From Eledone cirrhosa (taxonomy: Eukaryota), in NCBI GenBank assembly GCA_964016885.1, contig OZ024742.1:208134001-208198000 (forward strand): a stretch of DNA of 64,000 nt. The letters run 5' to 3'. Positions 26,859-29,170 of this stretch are shown here, piece by piece; the first letter of the stretch is position 1; every line of letters starts with the position of its first letter. Position numbers and translations under genes: made by a program. Under the pieces are notes generated by a model. That model did no database searches. It was not told where the DNA came from and worked only from the letters and a program-made list of their open reading frames with translations.

Positions 26859-29170
26859 TAAATGTAAGTATGCATGTATACGTACATACATATATGTATA
26901 CAGACGTACAGTAGCATGCACATATATATATATATATATACATATATAAATACATATGCATACAGGTACACATACATATATGCACGTATCAGTTTAGCGG
27001 CGCTAACGTCGCTTTGTTCGTTTGTAAACAAACTGAACAGCCTGAATTTATGCCATACGGTGTTAAGGCAACCACGTCACCTTTTTGTTCAACACTGACA
27101 CAGGAACGATGTACTAGTTTCAAGCTTGTTAGCTATCATCAGCACCGTTTACCCATCTGCCAGATAGTTGAACGTTCGAAAGTATATACTTTCCTTATGA
27201 AAATTAACGGCTGAGCAGCCTAATTTGCATATTGAGTGAGTTAAATCGGTCAGGCATACCGAAAACGATAAATTGAAACAAAATGAAAACGAAATTTCAT
27301 TTCTCACTCTTAGTATGGCACTTACTTAAATGTAAGTATGCATGTATACGTACATACATATATGTATACAGACGTACAGTAGCATGCACATATATATATA
27401 TATATACATATATACATACATATGCATACAGGTACACATACATATATGCACGTATCAGTTTAGCGGCGCTAACGTCGCTTTGTTCGTTTGTAAACAAACT
27501 GAACAGCCTGAATTTATGCCATACGGTGTTAAGGCAACCACGTCACCTTTTTGTTCAACACTGACACAGGAACGATGTACGAGTTTCAAGCTTGTTAGCT
27601 ATCATCAGCACCTGTATGCATGTGTATGTATATATGTATATATATATATATATATGTGCATGCTACTGTACGTCTGTATACATATAGGTATGTACGTATA
27701 CATGCATACTTACATTTAAGTAAGTGCCATACTAAGAGTGAGAAATGAAATTTCGTTTTCATTTTGTTTCAATTTATCGTTTTCGGTATGCCTGACCGAT
27801 TTAACTCACTCAATATGCAAATTAGGCTGCTCAGCCGTTAAATTTCATAAGGAAAGTATATACTTTCGAACGTTCAACTATCTGGCAGATGGGTAAACGG
27901 TGCTGATGATAGCTAACAAGTACATCGTTCCTGTGTCAGTGTTGAACAAAAAGGTGACGTGGTTGCCTTAACACCGTATGGCATAAATTCAGGCTGTTCA
28001 GTTTGTTTACAAACGAACAAAGTGACGTTAGCGCCGCTAAACTGATACGTGCATATATGTATGTGTACCTGTATGCATATGTATGTATATATGTATATAT
28101 ATATATATATATGTGCATGCTACTGTACGTCTGTATACATATATGTATGTACGTATACATGCATACTTACATTTAAGTAAGTGCCATACTAAGAGTGAGA
28201 AATGAAATTTCGTTTTCATTTTGTTTCAATTTATCGTTTTCGGTATGCCTGACCGATTTAACTCACTCAATATGCAAATTAGGCTGCTCAGCCGTTAATT
28301 TTCATAAGGAATGTATATACTTTCGAACGTTCAACTATCTGGCAGATGGGTAAACGGTGCTGATGATAGCTAACAAGCTTGAAACTAGTACATCGTTCCT
28401 GTGTCAGTGTTGAACAAAAAGGTGACGTGGTTGCCTTAACACCGTATGGCATAAATTCAGGCTGTTCAGTTTGTTTACAAACGAACAAAGCGACGTTAGC
28501 GCCGCTAAACTGATACGTGCTTATATGTATGTGTACCTGTATGCATATGTATGTATATATGTATATATATATATATATATGTGCATGCTACTGTACGTCT
28601 GTATACATATATGTATGTACGTATACATGCATACTTACATTTAAGTAAGTGCCATACTAAGAGTGAGAAATGAAATTTCGTTTTCATTTTGTTTCAATTT
28701 ATCGTTTTCGGTATGCCTGACCGATTTAACTCACTCAATATGCAAATTAGGCTGCTCAGCCGTTAACTTTCATAAGGAAAGTATATACTTTCGAACGTTC
28801 AACTATCTGGCAGATGGGTAAACGGTGCTGATGATAGCTAACAAGCTTGAAACTAGTACATCGTTCCTGTGTCAGTGTTGAACAAAAAGGTGACGTGGTT
28901 GCCTTAACACCGTTCGGCATAAATTCAGGCTGTTCAGTTTGTTTACAAACGAACAAAGCGACGTTAGCGCCGCTAAACTGATACGTGCATATATGTATGT
29001 GTACCTGTATGCATATGTATGTATATATGTATATATATATATATATATGTGCATGCTACTGTACGTCTGTATACATATATGTATGTACGTATACATGCAT
29101 ACTTACATTTAAGTAAGTGCCATACGAAGAGTGAGAAATGAAATTTCGTTTTCATTTTGTTTCAATTTAT
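26859..29170. mobile_element. Hammerhead-bearing tandem array 1 (468-bp monomer), two divergent arms (retrozyme-like)
   Basis: Left arm 26859-27612 (~1.6 units, HHR on - at 27105-27149). Right arm 27611-29170 (~3.3 units, HHR on + at 28353-28397 and 28821-28865). Flanked by (TA)n. Confidence 0.88.
28353..28397 (+). ncRNA. Minimal type I hammerhead of array 1 (representative copy)
   Basis: AACGGTG-CTGATGA-tAGCTaacaAGCTt-GAAA-CTAG-TA-CATCGTT. Confidence 0.85.

Follow-up and report, generated by a model that had tools for sequence, protein, structure and literature searches.

Introduction

Animal non-LTR retrozymes have been described in several reports (PMC7229834, PMC7761336, PMC11722881, 10.64898/2026.07.22.740005). 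They have been proposed to be non-autonomous derivatives of Penelope-like elements (PLEs) (10.64898/2026.07.22.740005; PMC7229834). The preprint 10.64898/2026.07.22.740005 traces them to PLE termini without settling the mechanism, and the mobilizing enzyme is posed as an open question in both of these sources. The preprint describes monomers, dimers, and multimers; the parts of it consulted here describe neither arm orientation nor fixed ends, and the words "inverted" and "opposite" are absent from the main text of PMC7229834.

PLEs themselves have a characteristic insertion structure, in which an inverted, 5'-truncated copy lies at the 5' end and a tail of 30-40 bp is often present at one end only (PMC8557442). 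The origin of the tandem and inverted structures, and of the tail, is posed there as an open question. For Penelope, head-to-head is a frequent form and has been read as self-priming on an antisense template (PMC3846280). A purified PLE protein from a lizard, for which a dimer is predicted, cleaves AT-rich DNA on both strands, extends both, and has two internal start sites that bound the tail; in vitro, its start site did not differ from strand to strand, and it mainly used RNA that had not been cleaved (PMC11167929). Chlamys PLEs such as MRC1 include non-autonomous, PLE-mobilized, multicopy elements that form head-to-tail insertions (PMC8557442).

The element described here is of a known kind and has a known insertion layout, and it forms a new family of that kind. 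What is new is the PLE layout on a retrozyme, present in thousands of copies, together with a countable rule for its two ends that favors priming from both ends of the target. No report of two-armed retrozymes or of strict end pairing was found in the papers searched; supplements and older papers on PLE structure may hold such observations.

Structure of the 468-bp Array

The window is a stretch of 64,000 nucleotides from contig C3 of the 3.0-Gb Eledone cirrhosa genome, and positions below refer to it unless a locus is named. The original prediction placed an array of a 468-bp monomer with two divergent arms in this window, with the hammerhead on the minus strand in the left arm and on the plus strand in the right arm, and (TA)n on both outer sides. 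All of this is borne out. Both arms of the array consist of the same unit, with a period of 468 bp (range 466-468). Table 1 lists the features of the array and of the related array 2. Units are numbered so that m1 is the first base 3' of the predicted cleavage site.

Table 1. Features of the 468-bp array and of array 2 within the window.
Feature	Position	Strand	Remarks
Left (TA)n target flank	26837-26858		Follows the end of another repeat
Left arm	26859-27612	minus	1.6 units, m434 to m253; outer 3' end = site A
Intact type I hammerhead	27106-27148	minus	Predicted cleavage after GUA at 27112
Hammerhead copy cut by the junction	27578-27612 (hit at 27608)	minus	Changed stem III
Head-to-head junction	27610-27612		3-nt microhomology common to both arms
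Right arm	27610-29170	plus	3.3 units, m145 to m312; outer 3' end = site B
Broken hammerhead copy	27897-27928 (hit at 27903)	plus	11-nt deletion through the core
Intact type I hammerhead	28354-28396	plus	6-bp stem I and extension, U.U-closed stem II, 2-bp stem III, palindromic loop
Predicted hairpin	28632-28651	plus	Site A in loop; one internal copy given
Octamer-like motif	28740-28747; also 27815, 28272	plus	TATA-like motif about 40 nt downstream
Octamer-like motif	27230	minus	TATA-like motif about 40 nt downstream
Intact type I hammerhead	28822-28864	plus	
Tail between sites A and B (59 nt)	29112-29170	plus	Only at the outer end of the right arm
Right (TA)n target flank	29171-29292		
Array 2, left arm (422-bp subfamily)	56618-59177	minus	Outer end = site B
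Array 2, right arm	59176-61173	plus	Outer end = site A; 2-nt overlap at junction

The 468-bp unit has the make-up of a retrozyme: it is short, tandem, non-coding, and low in GC, with no LTR, PBS, or PPT. The element contains no RT plus GIY-YIG frame, and the sole frame of at least 120 aa over the array is of low complexity. Units here are 420-540 bp in length, longer than the 170-400 nt given for animal non-LTR retrozymes in PMC7229834 and within the 51-972 bp of 10.64898/2026.07.22.740005. Circles and cleavage have been shown for those retrozymes. The octamer-like and TATA-like motifs of the unit may form a putative internal promoter. Newt satellite 2 is a precedent for a promoter of the snRNA type.

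Copies within the array differ only by private substitutions and two indels, and identical 361-bp stretches of the array occur on other contigs. The insertion is therefore young. Any target-site duplication is masked by the TA flanks.

Hammerhead Ribozyme Motif

The hammerhead of the unit is composed of CUGAUGA, stem II, GAAA, stem III (2 bp, with a palindromic loop), GUA, and stem I (6 bp, extended). The array has five copies, of which three are intact; two of these (28360 and 28828) lie in consecutive units, and the third is at 27142. A dimer-type architecture with a short palindromic helix III has been described for animal type I hammerheads (PMC4209133). In canonical hammerheads the base of stem II is typically G-C (PMC4209133); here it is U.U in the window copies and a non-standard pair in four of the five related motifs described below.

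The unit has no Rfam match at the gathering level, and the only hammerhead match is a weak one to HH9 (18.5 bits, E 0.086) in an E-value list dominated by TA-driven miRNA matches. The hammerhead is therefore called from its motif, fold, and covariation. Five related motifs of the same genome were compared (both window subfamilies and those of loci L102, L125, and L092), with the structure taken from the window copies. Across them, 90.4% of cells are paired and 14 of the 23 pairs are altered on both sides; none of 500 shuffles scored as high, and slid controls were 33-47% paired. Covariation thus supports the fold of a predicted type I hammerhead in the unit RNA. The predicted circular fold of the unit has a z of −6.5 (30 shuffles), a value inflated by TA palindromes. 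Among predicted retrozymes of frog, eight of nine showed no cleavage in vitro (10.64898/2026.07.22.740005).

Relationship to Array 2 and Copy Number

Array 2 (56618-61173) begins 29.8 kb beyond the 468-bp array. Homology between the two had been proposed from three motifs, and all three are present in each array, in forward orientation in the left arm and reversed in the right arm. In the monomer alignment, the 468-bp and 422-bp units agree in 328 of 422 aligned columns, or 78% (70% counting gaps). Identity peaks around the ribozyme (56/63 and 26/30) and is lowest at m31-125 (44/80).

Both subfamilies are dispersed at high copy number. The 28-nt ribozyme core has 13,751 exact matches in the genome, compared with none for the control, and is retained in 157 of 191 distinct units. 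The 468-bp subfamily is the larger one, with 4,487 exact marker matches against 1,877 for the subfamily of array 2. At least 2,004 ends of type A (defined below) are present genome-wide.

Head-to-Head Layout

The original prediction held that two independent cases make the divergent-arm layout a property of the mechanism. Two cases are too few for this, and the claim is carried instead by a genome tally. Elements were taken from clusters in the first-100 match lists of the core and of the two subfamily markers; arms were mapped and then curated by eye. In this sample, which is biased to long arrays with exact motifs, 66 of 99 elements are two-armed. All 66 are head-to-head and none is tail-to-tail. 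Plain satellites with random orientation switches, named beforehand as the contrary outcome, are not what the sampled genome contains.

The remaining 33 elements are single-armed. Many of these abut other repeats, and they may be broken two-armed elements. Excluded before the tally were L117 (gap), L134 (cut at the sequence edge), a low-complexity match in L140, and two diverged fragments in L047, in plus-then-minus order and separated by 770 bp, that lie among PLE remnants. Duplicated elements in L050 were counted once; this locus contains a pair of two-armed elements, both of which occur twice with the junction unchanged, and therefore reflects local duplication after insertion. L164-L170, on other contigs, stand outside the 99 and include four B+A insertions and two unresolved ones.

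Strand switches follow the same pattern. Within the first 100 core matches on contig C1, all 20 switches that span up to 1.7 kb are minus-to-plus. No plus-to-minus switch occurs within this distance, and the one or two found at 2-3 kb lie between separate elements. The head-to-head layout is not peculiar to the 468-bp family. It is the described insertion structure of Penelope-like elements and is also found in other families of this genome.

Outer Ends

The outer ends of the family lie in (TA)n, a target preference of the PLE type, and fall at two sites of the unit. Site A is m238-253 (approximately nucleotide 250), in or just before the loop of the predicted hairpin. Site B is about m290-315 (approximately nucleotide 310). 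Both ends could be resolved in 53 of the 66 two-armed elements; the other 13 end in the TA-rich middle or are cut by another insertion. Every one of the 53 has one A end and one B end (29 with A on the left, as in the 468-bp array, and 24 with B on the left, as in array 2). None of the 53 is A+A or B+B. This A+B pairing is a sharper rule than the divergent orientation first noted.

Exact end patterns of the 468-bp subfamily give 907 A ends and 1,002 B ends genome-wide, of which 86 and 100, respectively, are in the first 300.9 Mb of C1. Neighboring ends in this region that lie within 10 kb of each other form 57 pairs, all A+B and outward-facing, with spans of 130-8,199 bp; this set partly covers the loci of the 53-element tally. 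Extending the distance to 25 kb adds four pairs, of which three are arranged differently. Of the single arms, 22 end at B, 10 at A, and one at neither site (p 0.05), and the excess at B is a weak hint that site B primes first.

The same rule bears on the possibility that the arrays are assembly artefacts, produced by chimeric fold-back reads, or that they are an ordinary satellite inverted at random. Neither a read nor a contig was seen to cross the exact junction of the 468-bp array, where 27613-27665 was skipped as repeat, which leaves some room for an artefact. The flanks on the two sides are unlike, the junctions are offset, and the ends are fixed. The end rule and the unlike flanks argue against chimeric reads independently of any read data. 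Contigs of a public run (X1) hold 11 left-arm-to-right-arm joints among the 14 listed, along with A and B ends that pass into TA; the short sides of these joints are 21-27 nt, and the library is unrecorded and may come from the sample used for the assembly. Artefact or random inversion has next to no likelihood as the source of the arrays.

Inner Junctions and Template

Inner junctions were compared in 44 elements in which they fall outside the TA-rich middle, three of which come from beyond the C1 sample. The arms overlap by 0-16 nt in 33 of these, with a mean of 2.8 nt and an overlap of at least 2 nt in 23 of the 33. Random joins (1,500 simulated) have a mean overlap of 0.86 nt (p about 1e-11). 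The other 11 junctions contain 1-28 unmatched bases. Inner break points are scattered around the unit and show no visible accumulation at the cleavage site. The lengths of the two arms are uncorrelated (rho 0.17, p 0.26, n=44). The A arm is the longer one in 20 of the 44, and one element has arms of 3360 and 69 nt.

These junctions agree better with two cDNAs made separately and then joined through microhomology than with one strand folding back. Fold-back, in which a cDNA made at the target turns upon itself and copies itself into a second arm, has been proposed for inverted Penelope junctions with palindromes (PMC3846280), and three symmetric junctions at palindromes exist here (L041, L153, L164). 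Most junctions are asymmetric, however, and either arm may be many times longer than the other, so that with uncorrelated arm lengths fold-back would require heavy later expansion of one arm. It is an improbable origin for the family, if the least improbable of the alternatives weighed here.

The geometry of the arms points to a ribozyme-sense RNA template, from which each cDNA would have been copied inward from a 3' end of the target. Both arms repeat the unit type of their own locus in most multi-copy loci. In L118, L119, L120, L133, L156, and array 2, a single locus-specific unit with singleton changes only makes up both arms, as expected from a monomer circle. Locus L165 shows strict alternation of two units that differ at six sites, and L116 and L036 contain mixed units common to both arms. 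The mixed units of L116 and L036 are not explained by a single monomer circle and need a multimeric template or later exchange. A circle is favored as template over an uncleaved multimer by a slight degree.

Repeat number could also have been gained at the DNA level, with short two-armed PLE-type insertions lengthened later by slippage and unequal exchange and no RNA circle involved. Higher-order patterns such as the alternation in L165 and the mixed units of L116 and L168 are in keeping with this, as are the largest arrays, which reach 16 kb (L136). Such lengthening should leave variants shared within one arm, and these are absent from the six loci with a locus-specific unit named above. It also alters only the step that makes multimers and not the ends. 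It is very unlikely, slightly more so than fold-back.

Proposed Mechanism

The array at 26859-29170 is very probably a young insertion of a hammerhead-bearing non-LTR retrozyme, likely copied into (TA)n by a PLE RT/GIY-YIG endonuclease that primed on both sides of the cut. The ribozyme-sense strand would be transcribed, cleaved, probably as a dimer, and perhaps ligated into a circle. The PLE protein would then cut both strands of a (TA)n tract. One target 3' end would prime at the internal site B. The other would prime at site A, which lies 59 nt upstream, and each would pair with 2-3 nt of UA/AU. Each reaction would copy the unit repeatedly, across the ribozyme sites, and stop at random. The two cDNA ends would be joined by microhomology, sometimes with added bases, and an arm that failed or was later destroyed would leave a single-armed element.

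A more specific version is offered tentatively, and may well not hold. A dimeric PLE enzyme could sit on one small circular RNA with one subunit at A and the other at B, cut (TA)n on both strands, and carry out two simultaneous rolling-circle reverse transcriptions from both (TA)n ends, in which case the A+B pairing would be the footprint of an asymmetric dimer. If true, one model would serve for both the tail and the inverted copy of PLEs, and retrozyme circles would be tied directly to PLE enzymes.

Priming from both sides is also known from other elements. Twin priming by L1 produces a head-to-head joint with microhomology, and a LINE enzyme acting on a SINE-like RNA could give a joint of the same type. 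An intact-looking LINE frame is present in the window (8878-12303). That LINE ends at (TAA)n rather than (TA)n, and the retrozyme has no poly(A). Its arms overlap over whole units, both of its start sites are fixed and internal, and the two-end rule is common to GIY-YIG elements. Twin priming by a LINE enzyme is thus highly unlikely, and a PLE enzyme priming both target ends is preferred.

The family bears the complete PLE footprint on a retrozyme and comprises thousands of young insertions that are nearly identical, so that its rules become countable: each insertion has one short and one long end, its arm lengths are independent, and its arms are joined by microhomology. The A+B rule can be put to the in vitro PLE assay that already exists as a sharp prediction. 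Palindromic arrays of this kind should be neither set aside as errors of assembly nor classed as plain satellites.

Comparison with Penelope-Like Elements

The family shares several features with described PLEs. Like Penelope/Poseidon, Neptune, Hydra, and Naiad, it has an inverted, 5'-truncated copy in head-to-head orientation and a tail at one end, and like the latter three it targets (TA)n. Like endonuclease-bearing PLEs, it has a hammerhead whose helix III is short and palindromic, along with two internal start sites and microhomology joints. It differs in that the 468-bp element has no ORF and the entire insertion is the repeat, present many times in both arms. Its tail is 59 nt, compared with the 30-40 described (PMC8557442). 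The pairing of a short and a long end is strict here, whereas it is optional or frequent in described PLEs (PMC8557442, PMC3846280, PMC11167929). [quoted passage not shown]

A GIY-YIG search of the genome gave 10,597 candidates, many of them PLEs. Several families encode an RT with a C-terminal GIY-YIG domain preceded by a CX4CX2C motif, and these fit Neptune as described in PMC8557442 in their predicted proteins. Their copies are 94-99% identical in protein. In these families and a related one, the termini stop in (TA)n at either of two points separated by about 50-65 nt, and minimal hammerhead-like motifs with a palindromic stem III are present in some. Head-to-head pairs of such termini combine a short and a long end in 11 of 12 cases, with L135 (long+long) as the exception; several of the 12 are termini alone, and in two the long arm is seen only to pass the short end.

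A partner for the retrozyme was sought in 40 GIY-YIG loci (20 short and 20 long) out of the 10,597 candidates. In none of these 40 did a profile built from the unit match a PLE terminus other than in TA-rich sequence, and no autonomous partner was identified among them. One Neptune-like family has an end motif of 14-17 nt in common with the unit, where it marks the short end and not the long one. PLE ORFs beside the sampled elements were considered as partners and rejected, being separate insertions in shared TA tracts.

TA-targeting elements are nested in each other's end TA tracts at L054, L102, L121, L123, L125, and L035, which gives rise to chains of retrozymes and PLE termini.

Other Elements in the Window and Genome

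Other hammerhead repeats are present at L125:1010-1550, L092:100-500, and L101:7040-7260, as well as at L035:6300-8700 and L162:2900-4300. The last two belong to an unrelated retrozyme with a 310-bp unit, which is also head-to-head. One of these other families is a distant relative of the 468-bp unit with a canonical G-C stem II, and one has the same layout of octamer-like motif, TATA-like motif, and extended stem I.

A PLE-like element is located at 21883-26120 on the minus strand and ends in (TA)n. It contains a 717-aa frame (22930-25083) flanked by direct repeats at 21883-22500 and 25509-26120 that are identical at 610 of 611 positions. The frame has no Pfam match, a weak match to other PLE proteins, and a 96% identical copy in L058. 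From its sequence, the element is possibly a Hydra clade candidate. Decayed PLE-like frames at 17843-20102 include an internal 295-bp duplication (19239-19818).

The LINE frame at 8878-12303 is open over 1141 aa (RVT_1, zf-RVT) and ends near (TAA)n; a broken element akin to it lies at 3950-7360. A PIF1 helicase frame, probably a Helitron remnant, is found at 34491-35993. A Helitron-type origin of the 468-bp element, considered in view of the remnant at 34491-35993, was rejected, as it accounts for neither the ribozyme nor the paired ends. The sequence beside the PIF1 frame (35969-36575) is repeated in inverted orientation about 13 kb away (49359-49965). A different hammerhead-like motif is located at 30736-30782 and has relatives in L080, L093, and L106.
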